A stretch of DNA of 64,000 bases from a virus: IMG/VR virus record IMGVR_UViG_3300042691_025170, positions 36,579-100,578 of that record, one strand, 5' to 3'. The notes beneath the pieces were generated by a model. That model was not told the DNA's origin. It did no database searches and saw only the letters and a list, made by a program, of their open reading frames with translations. Shown one piece after another: positions 3,500 to 54,288 of this stretch. A program made the position numbers and the translations under genes. The first letter of the stretch is position 1. Each line of letters opens with the position of its first letter.

Positions 3500-6055
3500 A
3501 TGTATCAAAATATTTTCTATGAAAGAGGTAGAAACCTCATCCACTTGTGGGATGACCAAAGTGGTTATACAACATTTCCGTATCGTAAATACGCATATCG
3601 TAAAGACCCATACGGACAATATCGTTCAATGTATGGTGACAAGTTAGAACGAGTCAGTCGCTGGGAAAAGGATGAAGCTGAAGACCTTTTTGAGGCTGAT
3701 GTTCCTGAGACAACTCGTGTTCTCGTTGATGTTTATGATTCAGACCTACCATCAAAGGGTCATACAGTTCTGACTTTTGATATTGAGGTTGAAATGATTA
3801 CAGGCCTTCCTGATACAAAGGAAGCACAAAATGAAATTACAGCAATAGCTGCACATGATGACAGAAGTGGTCGCTATGAAGTTTTTGTTTTAGATAAACA
3901 CAGAAAAGCAAAAAAGACTAAAAATAATTTTAGCAAGGATGGTCGTGTGGTCGAGGTTCACATTTTTGATAATGAGAGAAATCTTCTGTCATCCTTCATA
4001 AATTATTATGAAGGTGTAATGCCAACCATTCTAACAGGTTGGAACATTGACTTTTTTGACATACCCTATCTTTACAATCGTATCCGAAATGTATTAGGAG
4101 AAAACAATGCTAAGAGACTATCCACAATAGGACAAACTTATTGGTCTCCATATCGTGAAAGATGGAGTTTTGGTGGTGTTAGTATTCTTGATTATTTGAA
4201 ATTATATAAGACTTACAATTATGGTCTTGAAAGTAGTTACACATTGAATCATATTGCTACTAAAGAATTGAAGAGAGGTAAGATTGAATATTCAGGTAAT
4301 CTTGATGAACTATTTGAGACAGACCTTGAAAAGTTTATTGAGTATAACATTGTGGATGTGGAACTTGTTGTAGCAATGGACCAGAAGTTAAAATTTGTTG
4401 ACCTCTGTAGAGCAATATGCCACGCTGGCTTCGTTCCTTATGAAGACTATATGTTCTCATCCAAGTATCTTGAAGGTGCGTGCCTGGCTTATCTAAAGAA
4501 GAAAGGGATGGTAGCACCAAACAAACCAAGAGACCGAAAGGAAAAGATGGCAGCTCTAAATGCTAGTGGTGATGAGAAATTCATCGGAGCATATGTGAAA
4601 GAACCGATTGTTGGAAAGTATGATTGGATATATGACCTTGACCTAACATCACTTTATCCTTCAATCATTATGAGTCTTAACATCAGTCCCGAAACTAAAA
4701 TCGGAAAGATTGATGGTTGGGATCCAGAAGAATGGATTAAGAATATTGATAAGAATTACAAACTAAAAAGTAAAAGTGGAGATGAATATGAATACACTCG
4801 TCAAGAATTGGAAGAAGTTATCAGAGATGGTAACTTATCGGTGGCAGCAAATGGTGTCCTATACAATCAGGACTCTCCGGGTCTTATTGCCGATATTTTA
4901 AGTACATGGTTTGACCAAAGAGTTGAGTTCCGAAAATTAGAAAAGAAATATGGTGAAGCGGGAGATAAAGAGAATTACGAATTCTATGCGAAGAGGCAGT
5001 TGGTTCAAAAGATTCTTCTTAATAGTATGTATGGTGTTCTTGGTCTTCCTGCCTTTCGGTTTTATGATATTGATAATGCAGAGGCGGTCACTATTACTGG
5101 TCAGATTATTATTAAGAAGACTGCGGAAATGGCGAACATGAAATATTGGAAAGAGTTGGGTAACAAAAATGATTATAATGTCTATATTGATACAGACTCA
5201 ATCTATATGCAAGCAGAACCATTAGTTAAGCATCGTTTCCCTGAATACAAAACATTTGACCAAGAAAGAATGGCACAAGAGGTAAACACCATTGCAGAGG
5301 AAACTCAATCATTTCTTAATAAGTTCTATGACATCTTTGCCGAACGATTCTTTTTCATTCCAACTGGTAAGCATCGTTTTGAAATCAAAAAGGAGTACAT
5401 CAGTAAAGCAGGTTTTTGGTTGGCAAAGAAACGATATGCTCAATGGATGATTTTAAAGAATGGTATTCCGTGTGACAAACTTGATGTGAAGGGTCTTGAT
5501 GTGGTAAGGTCATCATTTCCAAAGGCATTCCAAGACTTCATGGCAAAGATGTTGAAAGATATTCTAATGAACAAATCGGCAGACGATATCGGAGCAGACT
5601 TAATATCTTTCAAAACTAACCTTCCAAATCTTCCGATTTCAAAAATCGCAAAGGGTGGGGCTATCAAAGAACTTAGTAAGTACGATGATGGTAAGTGGAA
5701 GCCGGGTATTCCGATTTCAAGTTATGAAAAAGGAACACCTGCCCATGTCAAAGCCGGAATCGCATATAATCGTCTTCTGAAATTCTTCAATTGTCCTTTC
5801 AAACACGAACCGATTCGTGATGGTGACAAAGTGAAATGGGTTTATCTAAGGTCTAATCCACTTGGACTTGAGGGGTTAGCATTCCGTGATTACAATGACC
5901 CGAAAGAGATAATGGATTTCATCACTCAATACATAGACCGAGATGAAATCTATGAATCGGAGTTGGAGAATAAAATCGTAGACTTCTATACAGCATTGGG
6001 TTGGGATAAACCTACTTTGGAAACACAGACAGCCAAGAAGTTCTTTTCATTTTGA
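3500..6055 (+). CDS. Family B DNA polymerase (T4 gp43-like) with 3'-5' exonuclease
   Basis: ExoI FDIEVE, ExoII GWNIDFFDIPY, ExoIII YNIVDV; polymerase motifs DLTSLYPSI, KILLNSMYG, YIDTDS, KKRYA; ATG 3500 preferred over the overlapping upstream start. Confidence 0.97.
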   Translation: MYQNIFYERGRNLIHLWDDQSGYTTFPYRKYAYRKDPYGQYRSMYGDKLERVSRWEKDEAEDLFEADVPETTRVLVDVYDSDLPSKGHTVLTFDIEVEMITGLPDTKEAQNEITAIAAHDDRSGRYEVFVLDKHRKAKKTKNNFSKDGRVVEVHIFDNERNLLSSFINYYEGVMPTILTGWNIDFFDIPYLYNRIRNVLGENNAKRLSTIGQTYWSPYRERWSFGGVSILDYLKLYKTYNYGLESSYTLNHIATKELKRGKIEYSGNLDELFETDLEKFIEYNIVDVELVVAMDQKLKFVDLCRAICHAGFVPYEDYMFSSKYLEGACLAYLKKKGMVAPNKPRDRKEKMAALNASGDEKFIGAYVKEPIVGKYDWIYDLDLTSLYPSIIMSLNISPETKIGKIDGWDPEEWIKNIDKNYKLKSKSGDEYEYTRQELEEVIRDGNLSVAANGVLYNQDSPGLIADILSTWFDQRVEFRKLEKKYGEAGDKENYEFYAKRQLVQKILLNSMYGVLGLPAFRFYDIDNAEAVTITGQIIIKKTAEMANMKYWKELGNKNDYNVYIDTDSIYMQAEPLVKHRFPEYKTFDQERMAQEVNTIAEETQSFLNKFYDIFAERFFFIPTGKHRFEIKKEYISKAGFWLAKKRYAQWMILKNGIPCDKLDVKGLDVVRSSFPKAFQDFMAKMLKDILMNKSADDIGADLISFKTNLPNLPISKIAKGGAIKELSKYDDGKWKPGIPISSYEKGTPAHVKAGIAYNRLLKFFNCPFKHEPIRDGDKVKWVYLRSNPLGLEGLAFRDYNDPKEIMDFITQYIDRDEIYESELENKIVDFYTALGWDKPTLETQTAKKFFSF

Positions 6056-48550: not shown

Positions 48551-48624
48551 GGGGGTATAGCTCAGCTGGCTAGAGCATCTGCTTTGCAAGCAGAGGGTCA
48601 TCGGTTCGAATCCGTTTACCTCCA
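48551..48624 (+). tRNA. tRNA-Ala(UGC)
   Basis: GGGGGTA/TACCTCC acceptor with G3:U70, loop TTTGCAA, GGTTCGAATCC; CCA not encoded. Confidence 0.95.
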
Positions 48625-48628
48625 CAAT

Positions 48629-48702
48629 GGTCTCATAGCTCAATTGGATAGAGCAATTGCCTTCTAAGCAATAGGTTTCGTGTTCGAGTCACGATGGGAC
48701 TA
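48629..48702 (+). tRNA. tRNA-Arg(UCU)
   Basis: GGTCTCA/TGGGACT acceptor, ATTGC-CTTCTAA-GCAAT anticodon arm, GTTCGAGTC. Confidence 0.93.
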
Positions 48703-48707
48703 CTGAT

Positions 48708-48739
48708 TTTGTAATATCAAAAAAAAAGTCGTATATTTG
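48708..48739 (+). promoter_or_regulatory. Bacteroidota-type promoter
   Basis: TTTG-N20-TATATTTG upstream of tRNA-Ile(UAU). Confidence 0.75.
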
Positions 48740-48748
48740 TAATATCAT

Positions 48749-48822
48749 AGTCCGGTGGCGCAATTGGTTGGCGCAGGATGCTTATACCATCAAGGATGTT
48801 GGTTCAAGTCCAACCCGGACTA
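48749..48822 (+). tRNA. tRNA-Ile(UAU)
   Basis: AGTCCGG/CCGGACT acceptor, GCGC D-stem, GATG-CTTATAC-CATC anticodon arm, GTTGG-TTCAAGT-CCAAC T-arm. Confidence 0.85.
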
Positions 48823-48825
48823 CAA

Positions 48826-48992
48826 TGAGAGGCAGACGAAAGCTCAGGCGTAAGTAAGGGATGCATACTCTTACGGCGGCAAGTAGACACACGAAGAGCG
48901 TAATTAACTCTTCCCTCATTTTGCTAACCGGGCAATAGTACGATGCAGGCTCATCCCGGCGGGATACAAGGTGACGGTCAGGAAAGACTGAC
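48826..48992 (+). ncRNA. Candidate structured RNA(s) of unknown family
   Basis: GC-richer non-coding spacer with stems GTAAGGG/CTCTTAC, GAAGAG/CTCTTC, TGAG/CTCA, CCGGG/CCCGG, GTCAG/CTGAC. Confidence 0.5.
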
Positions 48993-48997
48993 AACAT

Positions 48998-49075
48998 AGT
49001 CAGGAGCGTAATGAGGCGTGGCTAGCCAAATCCCTAAAGGGTTGCACATTGCAGGTTCAAATCCTGTCCTGACTA
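48998..49075 (+). ncRNA. tRNA-like element with non-canonical anticodon arm
   Basis: Perfect AGTCAGG/CCTGACT acceptor plus A, T-arm GCAGG-TTCAAAT-CCTGT; no canonical 5 bp/7 nt anticodon arm. Confidence 0.7.
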
Positions 49076-49088
49076 CAAAATAAAAACT

Positions 49089-49571
49089 ATGAAAACAAAT
49101 GTAAGAAACACTATTTTTTTTGAACTGAAAATCATAAAAGAATATTGGCAGATAACTTCTATACTTGCAACTATTATATTTTTCTGCGTTTACTTTTGGC
49201 TACAAAGTAAGGAAGCAAATGAAAGAGTTGAAGAATTGAGTATTACTAACAAAGAACTAAAAGACAGAATAAGTCGTTTGGAAGGACAAGTGGATGTAAT
49301 CAATAGTAATATGGTTTTATTTGTGGAAAGAAATCCAGGTCTGACAACATATCGTTTGGAAATGTTGGAAGAAGCAATGGATGTTCAACAGGTTTTGAAT
49401 AGTCTTAATAGGAGAAACGAAACCGAAATTAAAATAGTTCAAATACCTACACCTGTGCCGGTATTTAATCCATCTCTCACACCGCCAACATATAATCCGA
49501 CTCAAATTCAAAGGTCAGATTCAAAAGTAAGTGTTCCGCAAAAGAAAAAGAGTTTGTTTAAAAATAATTAA
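49089..49571 (+). CDS. Single-TM coiled-coil protein
   Basis: TM segment, heptads, Pro-rich tail. Confidence 0.6.
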   Translation: MKTNVRNTIFFELKIIKEYWQITSILATIIFFCVYFWLQSKEANERVEELSITNKELKDRISRLEGQVDVINSNMVLFVERNPGLTTYRLEMLEEAMDVQQVLNSLNRRNETEIKIVQIPTPVPVFNPSLTPPTYNPTQIQRSDSKVSVPQKKKSLFKNN

Positions 49572-49591
49572 ATTTGTATATTGTAGAATAA

Positions 49592-49665
49592 GGGCCCTTA
49601 GCTCATTCGGTTAGAGCAAATGACTCATAATCATTAGGTGGTTGGTTCGATCCCAACAGGGCCCA
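49592..49665 (+). tRNA. tRNA with CAU anticodon, most likely Ile2 (lysidine type)
   Basis: GGGCCCT/AGGGCCC acceptor and GACTCATAATC arm resemble bacterial tRNA-Ile2 rather than elongator Met. Confidence 0.85.
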
Positions 49666-49671
49666 CAAAAA

Positions 49672-49756
49672 GGAGAGGTGGCAGAGCGGTTGAACGCGGC
49701 GGTCTTGAAAACCGTTTTACTGAAAAGTAACGGGGGTTCGAATCCCTCCCTCTCCG
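49672..49756 (+). tRNA. tRNA-Ser(UGA)
   Basis: GGAGAGG/CCTCTCC acceptor, G discriminator, CTTGAAA loop, long variable arm. Confidence 0.95.
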
Positions 49757-49791
49757 CATTTTTTTCTTTTTCTTATATTTAATCATAAATT

Positions 49792-49983
49792 ATGGAGTAT
49801 AAGTGGAAAGGAATAAATCTATATTCAGAAGAAAATAATAAAAAGATTAGTCGGATTATTCAAATAGAATGGAAAATAACTGAAGCAATCCGAAACGGAC
49901 ACAAATCGTATTGGGGAGACCAATTTAGAGAAGAAAGAAATGAAATGTTACAATTAAGAAAAGAGATACTAGGAGAAAAATAA
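49792..49983 (+). CDS. Hypothetical protein
   Basis: 63-aa ORF between tRNAs. Confidence 0.5.
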   Translation: MEYKWKGINLYSEENNKKISRIIQIEWKITEAIRNGHKSYWGDQFREERNEMLQLRKEILGEK

Positions 49984-49987
49984 ATAA

Positions 49988-50069
49988 GCCCATATGGCGT
50001 AATTGGTAGCCGCGCTAGACTTAGGATCTAGTGAAGTGATTCGTGGGGGTTCGAGTCCCTCTATGGGCA
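49988..50069 (+). tRNA. tRNA-Leu(UAG)
   Basis: GCCCATA/TATGGGC acceptor, CTAGA-CTTAGGA-TCTAG arm, long variable arm. Confidence 0.95.
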
Positions 50070-50123
50070 CATTTAGAAATTAAAAAACATATATTTATAT
50101 TTGTAAACATTAAACAATTAGTT

Positions 50124-50633
50124 ATGACAGAATTTTCATTTTTTGTAATGGGTGTTATAGGAACACTACTTACATCTACAATAGTTAGTATGATAGATTT
50201 TAAATTAACTCTCAATAATTTGAAGAGGTCTTTGACTGACATAAAATCGGTCAGAGAAAAACGAGAGGAATTACTTGATAAAAAAATAGATTCGGAAAAA
50301 GAAAACTTGATTAAGTTTTTGAAATCAAATGTAGAACATCTAAATTCCAATTTGGAAGTTTTGCAAAAAAGACAAAGTGAAACTTTTGAAAAATTAAATA
50401 CTGATTCTATAAATGGTTTTGATAAGATACATAATAGAACTACATTTGAAGTTGATAAATTATGGAATAGAATCACGGATGAAGTTAATGTATTAAGAAA
50501 TCAAATTGCTTCTAGACAAATTCAAAACTATGATGACTCTCATATTATTAATAAAATGTCAGAGTTGGAAAAAAAATTAGATTATTTTATAACATTAGTT
50601 TCTAATATTGATTCGAAAAAGACTAGAAAGTAG
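50124..50633 (+). CDS. Single-TM coiled-coil protein
   Basis: ATG 50124 after TATATTTG; the longer start overlaps tRNA-Leu. Confidence 0.6.
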   Translation: MTEFSFFVMGVIGTLLTSTIVSMIDFKLTLNNLKRSLTDIKSVREKREELLDKKIDSEKENLIKFLKSNVEHLNSNLEVLQKRQSETFEKLNTDSINGFDKIHNRTTFEVDKLWNRITDEVNVLRNQIASRQIQNYDDSHIINKMSELEKKLDYFITLVSNIDSKKTRK

Positions 50634-50634
50634 T

Positions 50635-50666
50635 TTTGTAAAAGTCAAAAATAATACTTATATTTG
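50635..50666 (+). promoter_or_regulatory. Bacteroidota-type promoter of tmRNA
   Basis: TTTG-N20-TATATTTG. Confidence 0.75.
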
Positions 50667-50684
50667 TAATGTTCTTTGAAATAT

Positions 50685-51080
50685 GGGGGTGAATAGAATT
50701 GATTGGTAACATAGTTCATTTCCTGCAAGTGGTGTTAGATGGAAACACTTAAATCCTCTATCAACAAACAAACGGAGAGCAAATCTCTACCTTCACCTTC
50801 GCAGATGCTATGGCATTTGTAGGTGCAGAAGAATACGCACTAGCTGCCTAGTCTTATCCCGTATCACTCATGGGATGTGTCAAAAAGAAGTGAGCCAGTT
50901 TTCTTGGTAGTCACAAAACCAAGTGGTGGATCCCGGATTTCCGGAGCCCAGTATGGCGTAGTAGCCAAGTCTAACTACTACCACCGTCATTCCGAAGCGG
51001 TGTGAGAATTTCGGAATAAACTTGTGAGTGAAGGAATGGGTTAGTTAAACAAGACGGGAGTGCGAATCTCCCCACCTCCA
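50685..51080 (+). ncRNA. ssrA: tmRNA
   Basis: GGGGGTG/CACCTCC-A acceptor with G3:U, T-arm GGGAG-TGCGAAT-CTCCC, internal tag ORF 50774..50851 GEQISTFTFADAMAFVGAEEYALAA-stop. Confidence 0.93.
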
Positions 51081-51089
51081 CTAAAAATA

Positions 51090-51121
51090 TTTGTAAACTT
51101 GTAAAAGTTTTCATATATTTG
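51090..51121 (+). promoter_or_regulatory. Bacteroidota-type promoter of tRNA-fMet
   Basis: TTTG-N20-TATATTTG. Confidence 0.75.
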
Positions 51122-51128
51122 TATAAAT

Positions 51129-51200
51129 CGCGGGATAGAGCAGTGGTAGCTCACTTGGCTCATAACCAAAAAGTCGTAGGTTCGAATCCTACTCCCGCTA
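51129..51200 (+). tRNA. Initiator tRNA-fMet(CAU)
   Basis: CGCGGGA/TCCCGCT with C1:U72 mismatch, CTCATAA loop, GGTTCGAATCC. Confidence 0.9.
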
Positions 51201-51224
51201 CGAAAGATGTTATTTGAAATAAAC

Positions 51225-51506
51225 AAATGTGGCCGAATAACCACTAATCAGGTGGTAAGGCATTCTCAATGTGGGCTGAAAAGCCCCAATGGAGTTGTCG
51301 TGACGATGAGATAAAATCACCATCACTAGGGATTAGGCCAATCCTATTAGTGCTCTGGATACACCGAAGAAATTGCATCTATGATTGCAGGTGTTGTTGG
51401 TAACCAATCCAATCGTTCATTAACAAACGGAGTCGCTATCCGTTTGGAGCGTGGGTGAAAAGGGGTCGTCAGTTGACTTGTGAGTAAATGTGAGTCTCAC
51501 CATTTT
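51225..51506 (+). ncRNA. Candidate ~280-nt multi-stem ncRNA, family unknown
   Basis: No ORF; at least 8 nested helices (see findings); ends in a T-run. Confidence 0.65.
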
Positions 51507-51523
51507 TTTATTTCATTATAGTA

Positions 51524-51621
51524 TTTGGGTGTATAAAGCTTTCTAACCGAAAGGTCAGTAGGGAATAGTTGATGGCAAACTATTGGAGAGATAATGAGAG
51601 AGCTTAGTCATTTACACCTAA
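51524..51621 (+). ncRNA. Candidate ~100-nt structured RNA
   Basis: TTTGGGTGTA/TACACCTAAA, AAGCTTTCT/AGAGAGCTT, ACC-GAAA-GGT, AATAGTT/AACTATT. Confidence 0.55.
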
Positions 51622-51653
51622 AAATTTTTGTCCAATATGGGAAATTGATTGTT

Positions 51654-51974
51654 ATGGAAAATATAGTACTACCGATGTGTATACTCGGTATTTTTTTATT
51701 TATGTATGGGTACAGAAAAAAATACCTAAATTATGAAGAATATCCTTCTGCCCCTGTATCTAAACTGATACCTCATTGGTATGAGATTAAGTCATGCCTA
51801 AATGACAGTATAAAATATACTGGCCCTTTTATATTCACTCCTTTTATGAAAGGTGATGTGGTGGTAGATGAGGATGGTCAGAAATATGAAGTTGGTAATA
51901 GAGTAAGAGAAAATCCGAAAGATAACATAATAGTAGTTTCAAAAACAATACGATGGAGATGCGAACCCCAATAG
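51654..51974 (+). CDS. Hypothetical single-TM protein
   Basis: ATG 51654 downstream of the structured element. Confidence 0.5.
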   Translation: MENIVLPMCILGIFLFMYGYRKKYLNYEEYPSAPVSKLIPHWYEIKSCLNDSIKYTGPFIFTPFMKGDVVVDEDGQKYEVGNRVRENPKDNIIVVSKTIRWRCEPQ

Positions 51975-52354
51975 TCTTTAATGCTAAAGAATGTAAAGAG
52001 TGTAATGTCCCAAAAGGTTGGGGACATGAAATCATTTTTGAAAACAATGAACTTTATTGTGGAAAACTTTTGTGTTTCAAGAAGGGAGCAAAGTTTTCTA
52101 TGCACTATCATCTGATTAAAGATGAAACTTGGTATGTGAAAGAAGGTGAGTTCATCTATCGTTGGATTAATACAGTAACAGCGGAGGTAAAAGAAGTCCT
52201 ACTAAAAGAGGGAGATACCGTCAGACAATTACCTGGCCAACCACATCAATTGGAAGCATTAACAGAGGGTGTTATATTTGAAGTATCCACACAACATTTT
52301 GATTCCGACTCTTACAGAGTTTGGAAAGGAGATGGTCAAATAACTAAAATATGA
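51953..52354 (+). CDS. Cupin, sugar-phosphate isomerase-like
   Basis: VPKGWGHE, YCGKLL, SMHYH..KDETW, PGQPHQL, EVSTQHFDSDSYR. Confidence 0.8.
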   Translation: MEMRTPIVFNAKECKECNVPKGWGHEIIFENNELYCGKLLCFKKGAKFSMHYHLIKDETWYVKEGEFIYRWINTVTAEVKEVLLKEGDTVRQLPGQPHQLEALTEGVIFEVSTQHFDSDSYRVWKGDGQITKI

Positions 52355-52749
52355 AAATTTGGGTGAACGGAACATTTGATGTCCTACACATAGGACACAT
52401 TAGACTATTAAAGTATGCGGCATCTTTAGGTGAATTGCGTGTTGGTATAGACACCGATGAAAGAGTTAAACGATTGAAAGGTGATGGCAGACCTTTTAAC
52501 AATTTAGGTGAACGTATAGAGTTTCTAGCCTCTTTGAAATTTGTAAAAGATGTCGTAACTTATACCACAGATGAAGAACTGGAAAATCACATAAAAAACT
52601 ATAAACCAGATATTATGGTGAAAGGTTCGGATTGGAAAGGCGGAAATATAATAGGTGGACGATATGTGAATGATATTCGTTTCATAGATATGGTAGAAGG
52701 TAAATCAACAACAAAAATTTTAAACTATGAAAGTAACGGTAATAGGTGA
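52351..52749 (+). CDS. Nucleotidyltransferase, HldC / RfaE domain II-like
   Basis: NGTFDVLHIGH, D..VKRLKGDGRPFN, KGSDW, KSTT. Confidence 0.88.
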   Translation: MKIWVNGTFDVLHIGHIRLLKYAASLGELRVGIDTDERVKRLKGDGRPFNNLGERIEFLASLKFVKDVVTYTTDEELENHIKNYKPDIMVKGSDWKGGNIIGGRYVNDIRFIDMVEGKSTTKILNYESNGNR

Positions 52750-53464
52750 GATATGTGAAGATATATTTGTATATGGTGAGTCCAAAAGATTAAGCCCAGA
52801 AGTACCTGTTCCTGTTTTTGTACCCAAGCGTTCATCTGCTAATAAAGGAATGGCAGGTAATGTAGTACAAAATTTACTAGCTATAAATCCAAGTTGTGAT
52901 GTTATTGGTTTTCATCAAAGTCGTTCAATAAAGAAAACAAGATATGTACATGATAAAACAAACCATATGTTTTTACGAGTTGATGAAGGTGAAGTAGTTG
53001 AAAATTTTGTAATGACTGAACATATCTTAAAACGAATCATAGAATCTGATATTGTTATTATCAGCGATTATGACAAAGGATATTTGGACAAGCATGATAT
53101 TCGTTCTATATCATCAAATAGTAAATTGTGTATTCTTGATTCTAAAAAAGTGTTGGATACCTATACTATAAAATCCGTAAGGTTTGTCAAACTAAACGAA
53201 ACCGAGTTTCAAAATAATAAATTTGACGATTCCGATATTAGTAAAATTATTATCACACGTGGTATAGATGGTACTGATTATATGGGTAATAATTATCCCT
53301 CACCCAAACCTATCCAAACTATGGATGTTAGTGGAGCTGGCGATACATTTACCGCCGCCTTTGCTATAAAGTATTTTGAAACAAAGGAAACTAAACAATC
53401 AATCATTTATGCCAATGAAATGGCAAGTATTGTAGTATCTAAAAGAGGAGTAGCAACACCATGA
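52727..53464 (+). CDS. PfkB kinase, HldA / RfaE domain I-like
   Basis: RLSPEVPVPV, GMAGNV..NL, KTRY, SDYDKG, DVSGAGDTF, VVSKRG. Confidence 0.88.
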   Translation: MKVTVIGEICEDIFVYGESKRLSPEVPVPVFVPKRSSANKGMAGNVVQNLLAINPSCDVIGFHQSRSIKKTRYVHDKTNHMFLRVDEGEVVENFVMTEHILKRIIESDIVIISDYDKGYLDKHDIRSISSNSKLCILDSKKVLDTYTIKSVRFVKLNETEFQNNKFDDSDISKIIITRGIDGTDYMGNNYPSPKPIQTMDVSGAGDTFTAAFAIKYFETKETKQSIIYANEMASIVVSKRGVATP

Positions 53465-54288
53465 AAAATGTAATAATTACAGGTACAAAAGGATTTATTG
53501 GTGGCAGACTATTGAATAGACTAAAGGGTGAATTCAATTGTTATGAAATAAACGAAGACATATTTGATAGTTCTGATTTGACAAAGGAAATAGATAACAT
53601 CATGTTTAATGTGAATCCGGTAGCCGTGTTTCATGTTGGAGCATGTTCCAATACATTAGAAACTGATGTAAACTATATGATGAGTAGAAATTTTGAATTC
53701 ACCAAAATACTATCAGATCAATGCACTTTGTATAAACATAACATACCATTTGTATATTCTTCTTCCGCTGCAAATTATGGTATAGACGGAACTAGTCCTT
53801 CAAATCTATATGGATGGAGTAAATATGTAGCTGAACAATATGTTACACTAAATGGTGGTGTAGCTCTACGCTACTTTAATGTGTACGGACCAGGCGAAGA
53901 ACATAAAGGTAAAATGTCATCAGTTGCTTTTCAAATGTGGAAAAAGTATAAAAGAGGTGATATTATAAAAATATTTCCTGGCAAACCTCAGCGAGATTTT
54001 GTTTACATTGAAGATGTAATAGAAGCTAATATTGAAGCATATAAAAATTATGACGAATACCATTTCCACTGGTTTGATGTTGGTTATGGTGAGTCAAGAA
54101 CATTTGAAGATGTTTTGGATATAATGGCAATACCATTTGAATACACGGATGAAAACGATATTCCAAAAGGATATCAGTTTTTCACAAAGAGTAATCCCGA
54201 TAAGTGGATGAGTGGATGGAAGCCAAAATATCCAATAGAAGTTGGATTAACCGAATATAAAAAATATCTTGAAAATGGAAAATTCTAA
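53461..54288 (+). CDS. hldD: ADP-L-glycero-D-manno-heptose 6-epimerase-like
   Basis: GFIG, FHVGACSNT.E, YSSSAANYG, PSNLYGWSK, LRYFNVYGPGEEHKGKMSSV, RDFVYIEDV, YQFFTKS. Confidence 0.85.
   Translation: MKNVIITGTKGFIGGRLLNRLKGEFNCYEINEDIFDSSDLTKEIDNIMFNVNPVAVFHVGACSNTLETDVNYMMSRNFEFTKILSDQCTLYKHNIPFVYSSSAANYGIDGTSPSNLYGWSKYVAEQYVTLNGGVALRYFNVYGPGEEHKGKMSSVAFQMWKKYKRGDIIKIFPGKPQRDFVYIEDVIEANIEAYKNYDEYHFHWFDVGYGESRTFEDVLDIMAIPFEYTDENDIPKGYQFFTKSNPDKWMSGWKPKYPIEVGLTEYKKYLENGKF

Follow-up and report, generated by a model that had tools for sequence, protein, structure and literature searches.

A tmRNA-linked structured RNA of freshwater T4-like phages with manA-like ends and an inserted four-hairpin domain

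We show how a structured RNA folds, to which family of homologues it belongs, from which strand it is read, that it is present as RNA, and that tmRNA and tRNA genes adjoin it; it is encoded at positions 51225-51509 (+ strand) of a 64,000-nucleotide stretch of viral DNA, referred to here as the window, which comes from a 100.6-kb IMG/VR viral record with an estimated completeness of 53%. On balance, we consider it probable that this segment is a stand-alone gene, and that its product, a stable RNA of ~275 nt built on the frame of manA RNAs, acts in trans as a folded particle.

Results

Position of the RNA in a phage RNA-gene cluster

The phage is T4-like, with a family-B DNA polymerase of PHROG 262 and a clamp loader; its closest isolate is Microcystis phage Mel-JY01 (48% polymerase identity), and T4-like cyanophages come next (about 30%). 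The features of the locus are:

48551-50070, + strand: tRNA cluster (tRNA and Rfam scans)
50685-51083, + strand: phage-encoded tmRNA (Rfam RF00023, 59.5 bits against a cut-off of 47)
51091-51119, + strand: promoter-like motif TTGTAA-N17-TATATT, before tRNA-Met (consensus scan alone)
51129-51201, + strand: tRNA-Met (CAU), 24-27 nt 5' of the structured RNA
51202-51593, + strand: ORF-free block, longest ORF at most 44 aa
51225-51509, + strand: structured RNA, from the P1 5' strand to the U-run (alignments, covariation, RNA contigs)
51594-51974, + strand: orphan ORF of 126 aa (ORF list; 90 aa in the public collection)
51953-52354, + strand: cupin, with a marginal mannose-6-phosphate isomerase match
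52351-52749, + strand: cytidylyltransferase-like gene
52727-53464, + strand: PfkB kinase
53461-54288, + strand: epimerase

An earlier note on this DNA had described an ORF-free block adjoining a tRNA in a phage RNA-gene cluster, and both parts of that description hold: the tRNA is tRNA-Met (CAU) at 51129-51201, which has a C-U mismatch at position 1:72, and no ORF in 51202-51593 exceeds 44 aa. The consensus scan places the TTGTAA-N17-TATATT motif also before tRNA-Ile (48709-48737) and before the tmRNA (50636-50664), and gives no such site between tRNA-Met and the structured RNA; the recurrent motif may be the phage's promoter for RNA genes. The window tmRNA receives no call by ARAGORN and is partly matched by RNA contigs from other phages' tmRNAs; related phage tmRNAs are common among the fetched loci (L029, L084, L093, L099, L111, L113). 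On the 3' side of the structured RNA, the 126-aa orphan ORF finds no relative either in IMG/VR or in a set of 5.8 billion proteins, and is missing from the near-identical relative L150, in which the 120 nt that follow the RNA (51511-51628) are 95% conserved and run directly into the cupin gene. In the window, these 120 nt gave no Rfam match and are free of RNA contigs. The operon at 51953-54288 (cupin, nucleotidyltransferase, PfkB kinase, epimerase) is heptose- or mannose-nucleotide-like, and large phages carry its cupin, at 73-85% identity, in 80 or more IMG/VR loci (110 confirmed).

Homologues and covariation

A first search pattern that demanded the window's own P2 stem gave no hits; a pattern on the P2 motif that left the inner stem unconstrained gave 16 IMG/VR loci with 13 full-length homologues; and two further patterns on invariant blocks took the tally to 58 copies, which lie on contigs of viral or freshwater metagenome origin. 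The 44 distinct full-length sequences among these 58 copies make up alignment A2, and one additional copy was found afterwards with a covariance model of the 171-position core domain (model R1). Searches elsewhere gave nothing: blastn and nhmmer with the RNA yielded no match among 80 IMG/VR cupin-gene loci, on 20 of which Rfam at its gathering threshold gave no manA RNA; in 50,697 GenBank phage records, blastn queries with the window copy and with that of L086 met tRNA matches only, or none; the pattern scan of one genome from each of 185,579 prokaryote species gave no hit; and Mel-JY01 has no copy. Each of two complete genomes, of 173 and 183 kb, has a single copy.

The earlier note had proposed a large structured RNA, to be judged by collecting homologues and examining their covariation, and the homologues bear the proposal out. 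RNAalifold and pair counting on the 44 homologues define 68 base pairs in 15 helices, with 97.5% of cells paired and with changes on both sides, that is, compensatory changes, in 37 of the 68 pairs. The covariation score is 0.352, as compared to 0.18 for shuffled alignments, none of 500 of which reaches the observed value, and 0.05-0.11 for slid partners. The comparative evidence is decisive for the fold. The single-sequence minimum-free-energy fold of the window copy, in contrast, has a z-score of only -1.9, and of -2.0 on the opposite strand, so that folding of one sequence is not decisive. Several pairs are invariant G-U pairs, which the opposite strand would read as C-A, and we therefore assign the RNA to the + strand. 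Averaged over alignment columns, the 44 RNAs are 68% identical; the polymerases of the 173- and 183-kb genomes, in comparison, are 38% identical to that of the window phage. We conclude that the structured RNA is under strong selection and is more conserved than the phage DNA polymerase.

Fold of the RNA

The elements of the fold, from its 5' end, are:

51225-51229 with 51501-51505, + strand: P1, the closing helix (AAAUG with CAUUU), equivalent to manA P1
51232-51261, + strand: P2 (GCC/GGC plus ACCAC/GUGGU), the best match to manA P2
51247-51250 with 51382-51385, + strand: candidate pseudoknot, P2 loop AUCA with UGAU
51262-51295, + strand: extended hairpin with the invariant cap CUGAAAAG (helices 4 and 5)
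51301-51471, + strand: inserted core domain (helices 6-14), scoring 156.6 bits with model R1
51335-51338, + strand: GGCC, apical loop of the 51324-51352 hairpin, a loop that is self-complementary in most members
51480-51500, + strand: last hairpin, GUGAG/CUCAC (51480-51484 with 51496-51500), helix 15, equivalent to manA P5

P1 joins the bases right before GUGGCC to the bases right after the last hairpin. The AAAUG/CAUUU end closure proposed in the earlier note is present, and across the family cognate partners pair better than swapped ones (mean anchored length 5.18 vs. 4.33 +/- 0.18); in the window copy, however, the helix is weak, with five A/U-rich pairs. In roughly one member in four (10 members) P1 reaches 7-11 bp, including 11 bp in L100 and 8-9 bp in L111 and L118. 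P2 encloses an invariant internal loop, GAAUA(A)/UAA, and shows compensatory change in 7 of its 10 pairs (helices 2 and 3). The extended hairpin contains GGGCU-GAAA-AGCCC at 51273-51286, with its GAAA tetraloop at 51278-51281.

The core domain is closed on its outer side by a long-range helix, UGACGA(U)/UCGUCA (51301-51307 with 51465-51471), and on its inner side by AUC/GGU (51316-51318 with 51454-51456), with an invariant internal loop, GAG.U.AAA/GAAAAGGG, between the two closing helices; UCACC/GGUGA (51317-51321 with 51454-51458) is found in the window sequence. Four hairpins make up the rest of the domain (51320-51358, 51361-51394, 51396-51413 and 51414-51451), and comprise a CACU../..AGUG hairpin at 51324-51352, an ACACC/GGUGU helix at 51361-51394, a GUUGG/CCAAU helix at 51396-51413, CGUUC/GAGCG (51414-51418 with 51447-51451) and a CAAACGGA/UCCGUUUG helix at 51425-51447. 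The last hairpin has a 5-bp stem and an 11-nt loop, UAAAUGUGAGU; CAUUUUUUU is directly 3' of it, and a U-run (U7) occupies 51503-51509. The last hairpin with the U-run probably also ends transcription in the window copy. Every helix that the earlier note had listed occurs in the window copy, and the family consensus includes nearly all of them; GUUGG/CCAAU, CGUUC/GAGCG, the last hairpin and the loop-loop pseudoknot are absent from its list.

The candidate pseudoknot is GAGA with UCUC in the other 41 members and is 100% paired; three of its four pairs switch together in the clade of the window, L113 and L150, which amounts to one evolutionary event. One further helix, UGUG/CACA (A2 columns 17-20 with 89-92), is 90% paired, hardly covaries and is unformed in the window copy. 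Two other candidates were rejected: pairing of the 51396-51413 hairpin loop with the GGAUU linker, for which one-sided variation is uncompensated (A2/A3, by eye), and a hammerhead-like GAUGAG...GAAA arrangement, the topology of which is that of an internal loop and not that of a three-way junction.

Presence of the RNA in lake metatranscriptomes

The window stretch is present in DNA runs, mostly with freshwater or aquatic labels, and in six metatranscriptome runs. Sequencing runs with a share of 0.00, and those with less than half of the sampled words for which no contigs were compared, were left aside as evidence. Contigs from four RNA runs, each from a different study, were compared with positions 50000-53000; the data are assembled contigs and not reads, and RNA ends and strand are to be taken from them as hints only. 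The contigs that match the ORF-free block are:

51229-51499: contig of RNA run X15, 271 nt, depth 28.5
51228-51462: contig of RNA run X16, 235 nt, depth 56.6
51242-51464: contig of RNA run X18, 223 nt, depth 2.5
51259-51463: contig of RNA run X20, 205 nt, depth 2.09

All four consist of the structured RNA alone, with no differences from it and no loose ends, and in the four metatranscriptome runs no RNA contig covers 50000-50706, 51010-51211 or 51515-53000. DNA carry-over would not show such selectivity for the structured RNA. The RNA contigs of two studies start no more than 1 nt apart, at the point where conserved sequence begins. We conclude that lake metatranscriptomes contain the structured RNA as a discrete species, the kind of transcript that the earlier note had wanted to see.

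Relation to manA RNAs

The earlier note had called the RNA an orphan, and had seen no hallmarks of RNase P, group I intron, SRP or tRNA; the RNA indeed matches none of the RNase P, intron, SRP and tRNA models in Rfam. At gathering thresholds, Rfam finds tRNAs and tmRNA only in the window. At relaxed thresholds, manA (RF01745) is the sole match with E <0.1 on the stretch (+ strand, 26.6 bits; E 0.0075 when the whole window is searched), and, among 4227 models, it is the only family matched in all 7 members tested, at 19.9-29.4 bits (29.4, 29.0, 27.4, 20.1 and 19.9 bits in other members), with every member under the manA gathering cut-off of 55.2 bits and none above 29.4. A strong match to a known family is thus absent (best 29 bits vs. 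55.2), and the new family has no entry of its own in Rfam 15. The orphan label stands insofar as no Rfam family exceeds its cut-off, but the consistent sub-threshold matches suggest a distant, enlarged relative of manA.

The most informative alignment is that of the L111 copy, which reaches E 6e-6 locally. At the 5' end it runs through manA P1, UG, P2 and the GAAA hairpin, after which comes a 155-nt insertion; at the 3' end it runs through a P4-like helix, manA P5 on the last hairpin, and the P1 3' strand. P5 and the last hairpin give the pair UUGUGGGUAAUCAGUACUCCCAC and UGugGGUAuacAguAAUCCcaC, and UUGUGGGUAAUCAGUACUCCCAC in the L111 copy is aligned with high posterior. In manA itself, P5 (GugGG / UAuacAguAAU / CCcaC) is likewise followed directly by the P1 3' strand. 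The window's last-hairpin loop is less similar to that of manA P5, and has the same 5-bp stem and 11-nt length. The window's GUG-GCC-GAAUAA...UAAGGC aligns with manA P1-UG-P2 with high posterior; this block is invariant across the 44 members, and the CUU of the manA UGAAUAA.CUU loop is missing from it. The two families thus have in common a closing P1 followed by UG, a P2 with a GAAUAA/UAAGG internal loop, a GAAA-capped hairpin, a terminal 5-bp hairpin with an 11-nt UA..CAGUA.U loop and the P1 3' strand directly after it, together with loops suited to RNA-RNA contacts and an occurrence in T4-like phages of aquatic hosts.

The three-hairpin P3 domain of manA (GUGGUG, GAAA and uaACCA loops) is represented in the new RNA by one GAAA hairpin only, and the P3 pairs of the manA model are flagged as unpaired in the window RNA; the new RNA has, instead, an extra four-hairpin domain of ~150 nt closed by a long-range helix, and is about 275 nt long, as compared to about 190 nt for manA. 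Model R1 finds no match in the manA-like RNAs of L091, L097 and L098, and a sequence-only HMM profile comparison of manA with the new family does no better than shuffles. Weinberg et al. (2010, PMC2864571) located manA RNAs in the 5' UTRs of genes for mannose/fructose metabolism; a 5'-leader position before genes for sugar metabolism, nucleotide synthesis or photosynthesis was not found for the new family, the neighbours of which are tmRNA, tRNAs and terminators. The new RNA comes from freshwater samples, and manA mainly from marine ones. Two sequences that carry the P2 pattern score between the two families, at 51.0 and 36.4 bits. At L097:144-600, two manA-like RNAs stand in tandem (manA-like RNAs are also present in L091 and L098): the first scores 51 bits, and the second begins at the end of the first, with a window-type P2, GUGGCCGAAUAA...UAAGGC, and then a terminator.

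On this comparison, both ends of the RNA follow the manA frame, and a new ~150-nt domain of four hairpins, which covaries, is inserted between them. We consider common descent with manA, or at least a shared core fold, likely; the RNA should not be placed in RF01745 as now defined.

Genomic context across the family

A tmRNA profile built for nhmmer from seven phage tmRNAs locates, for 43 of 58 copies, a same-strand tmRNA 5' of the RNA, at a gap of 10-675 nt that is frequently 10-12 nt. Copies elsewhere sit between tRNAs, with, for example, a tRNA-Glu ending 12 nt before the RNA; in several copies a tRNA-Met or tRNA-Thr begins 0-6 nt after the RNA, and in many a separate strong terminator hairpin follows it. 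Of the copies for which 1.5 kb of upstream sequence is available, at least 10 lack a tmRNA in it and lie between tRNAs. Metagenome contig L145 carries the tmRNA-RNA module twice (357-672 and 4333-4648), 4 kb apart, each RNA lying 95 nt behind a tmRNA. Locus L029 has a tmRNA without the structured RNA. Canonical manA RNAs differ in this respect: none of 120 has a tmRNA within 1.5 kb, and a tRNA within 300 nt is rare, being found upstream in 1 of 110 and downstream in 5 of 102. The distance to the nearest following ORF, measured crudely, does not tell the two families apart. The sugar operon is downstream of the RNA only in the window and in its 95%-identical relative L150; in other cupin-operon records, model R1 finds the RNA in 1 of 49, about 25 kb from the cupin. 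Cupin-operon records from large phages (up to 299 kb) contain no manA RNA.

Palindromic apical loops

Two apical loops of the core domain are self-complementary. The loop of the 51324-51352 hairpin is UGCGCA in 23 members, GGCC in the window, and GAUC or UGCA in other clades; in L096 it is UGUACA, a double change that keeps the palindrome, and its mean longest palindrome is 6.5 nt, as compared to 3.2 nt in shuffles. The loop of the 51425-51447 hairpin is UGAUCA in 37 members; in L113 it is UAGCUA, four changes that again keep the palindrome, and in the window it is UCGCUA, an imperfect palindrome. In the aligned sequences, self-complementarity appears to be the only conserved property of the two loops. 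Because both loops change and yet stay self-complementary, two-fold kissing contacts between copies are suggested. manA RNAs are reported, in a 2026 preprint that names deposited models PDB 23NT, 23NO and 24QD, to form decamers and a 60-mer cage via kissing loops, as pentamer-based closed oligomers (bioRxiv 10.64898/2026.07.01.735769). By analogy with that report, the new RNA could self-associate into dimers or larger closed assemblies, a possibility that we put forward tentatively and would not yet bet on; the palindromes could instead be sites at the DNA level.

Discussion

Three other explanations of the RNA have to be weighed against a stand-alone, trans-acting gene. The first concerns descent: the family could be independent of manA in origin and function, and could merely reuse common blocks (a loop motif, a GNRA hairpin, a T-loop-like hairpin). 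The Rfam scores of the tested members, at about half the cut-off or less, the lack of a match in the reciprocal search with core model R1, HMM comparisons at noise level, and the differences in size and genomic context are all consistent with independence. However, one and the same Rfam family out of 4227 is matched in 7 of 7 members; the matched blocks are collinear and lie at both ends of the molecule (P1, UG, P2, UUG, last hairpin, P1 3' strand); the last hairpin of L111 has an 11-nt loop near-identical to that of manA; both families occur in T4-like aquatic phages; and the sequences at 36-51 bits bridge the two. We regard independent origin as unlikely. The second explanation is a manA-type cis-acting leader, or riboswitch candidate, which would sense a metabolite and control read-through into the sugar operon by means of the last hairpin and the U-run. 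manA is the only Rfam match of the window RNA, and manA RNAs lie in 5' UTRs of mannose/fructose metabolism genes (PMC2864571); a hairpin and U7 are in place at 51480-51509; and a cupin with a marginal mannose-6-phosphate isomerase match, heading a sugar-nucleotide operon, follows the RNA, which is directly 5' of the cupin also in L150. Because the cupin operon is just 3' of the RNA in both, a local cis effect is possible there. Against a leader, other clades have tRNA genes or a separate strong terminator after the RNA and not a sugar operon; in the one other cupin-operon record among 49 that has the RNA, the two are about 25 kb apart; the last hairpin is conserved and covaries as part of the fold, its loop is conserved too, and it is not a platform for alternative pairing; and the RNA contigs end at 51499, with nothing downstream. 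The sugar operon downstream in the window is incidental, and a leader function is, in our judgement, very unlikely.

The genomic context raises a further explanation, that the RNA is an accessory of trans-translation and has the phage tmRNA as its partner or its target; SmpB, a ribosome factor or a nuclease might, for instance, be bound by it. Such a role would explain why two genes travel together, the tmRNA being immediately 5' in 43 of 58 copies and the pair being present twice, 4 kb apart, in L145, and it fits the absence of a tmRNA within 1.5 kb of all 120 canonical manA RNAs. However, the copies between tRNAs, at least 10 of which have 1.5 kb of upstream sequence and no tmRNA in it, and the tmRNA of L029, which stands without the RNA, speak against such a role, and the linkage may reflect a shared promoter and shared processing in an RNA-gene island. 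We hold an accessory role to be distinctly improbable.

For the stand-alone, trans-acting gene that we favour, the following course of events can be pictured. The RNA, on the same strand as the tmRNA and tRNA-Met, would be co-transcribed with them, the nearest promoter-like site being the one before tRNA-Met, and the transcript would end at the last hairpin and U-run. From this tail-to-head arrangement, the maturation of tRNA and tmRNA ends by host enzymes would release the RNA. It would then fold into P1, P2, the GAAA-capped hairpin, the ~150-nt four-hairpin domain and the final 5-bp hairpin, with the pseudoknot linking the P2 loop to the inserted domain. Copies may be joined by loop-loop kissing contacts into dimers or larger closed assemblies, and the RNA would act in trans as a folded particle rather than as a leader for the sugar operon 3' of it. 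Its possible roles include protection or sequestration of RNA, a link to trans-translation, and host takeover.

The earlier note had likened the RNA to GOLLD. The analogy is apt insofar as both are tRNA-adjacent phage RNAs, but no match in sequence or structure accompanies it: Rfam gives no match to GOLLD, ROOL or other large phage RNAs at E up to 1 over the whole window and E up to 10 over 51150-51600. Like GOLLD and ROOL, the new RNA is a large, intricately folded non-coding phage RNA in or beside tRNA clusters; in contrast to them, it is 2-3 times shorter, and its helices and conserved nucleotides differ. GOLLD and ROOL have been reported to form multimeric cages. A catalogue of 8,495 unnamed structured RNA candidates of DNA viruses, from IMG/VR intergenic regions, has been published (Fremin and Bhatt, 2023, PMC10690425); the new family may be one of these unnamed candidates, and the main text of that article holds no description of a tmRNA-linked ~275-nt RNA. 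The literature searched likewise holds no description of a tmRNA-linked, manA-like RNA.

The findings add to the known RNA families one that is not in Rfam, with more than 44 members and full covariation support, and reveal a previously unnoted tmRNA-linked RNA module of freshwater T4-like phages. They also bear on the question, standing since 2010, of what manA RNAs do: these RNAs were filed as riboswitch candidates, yet are reported to form RNA cages of 10 and 60 subunits in vitro (bioRxiv 10.64898/2026.07.01.735769). With a manA frame in a tmRNA/tRNA context, terminated on its own, a leader function is hard to argue. The new family offers a directly testable case of a trans-acting, self-assembling phage RNA and a natural 'expanded' variant for structural comparison. 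More speculatively, and with low confidence, we propose that it could represent a new class of phage RNA-only assemblies: closed multimers that would form via two independent kissing loops in infected cells, would be made stoichiometrically with tmRNA from one precursor, and would act in the takeover or protection of translation or RNA. If this is true, the wider manA class would consist of trans-acting RNA particles and not of riboswitches.
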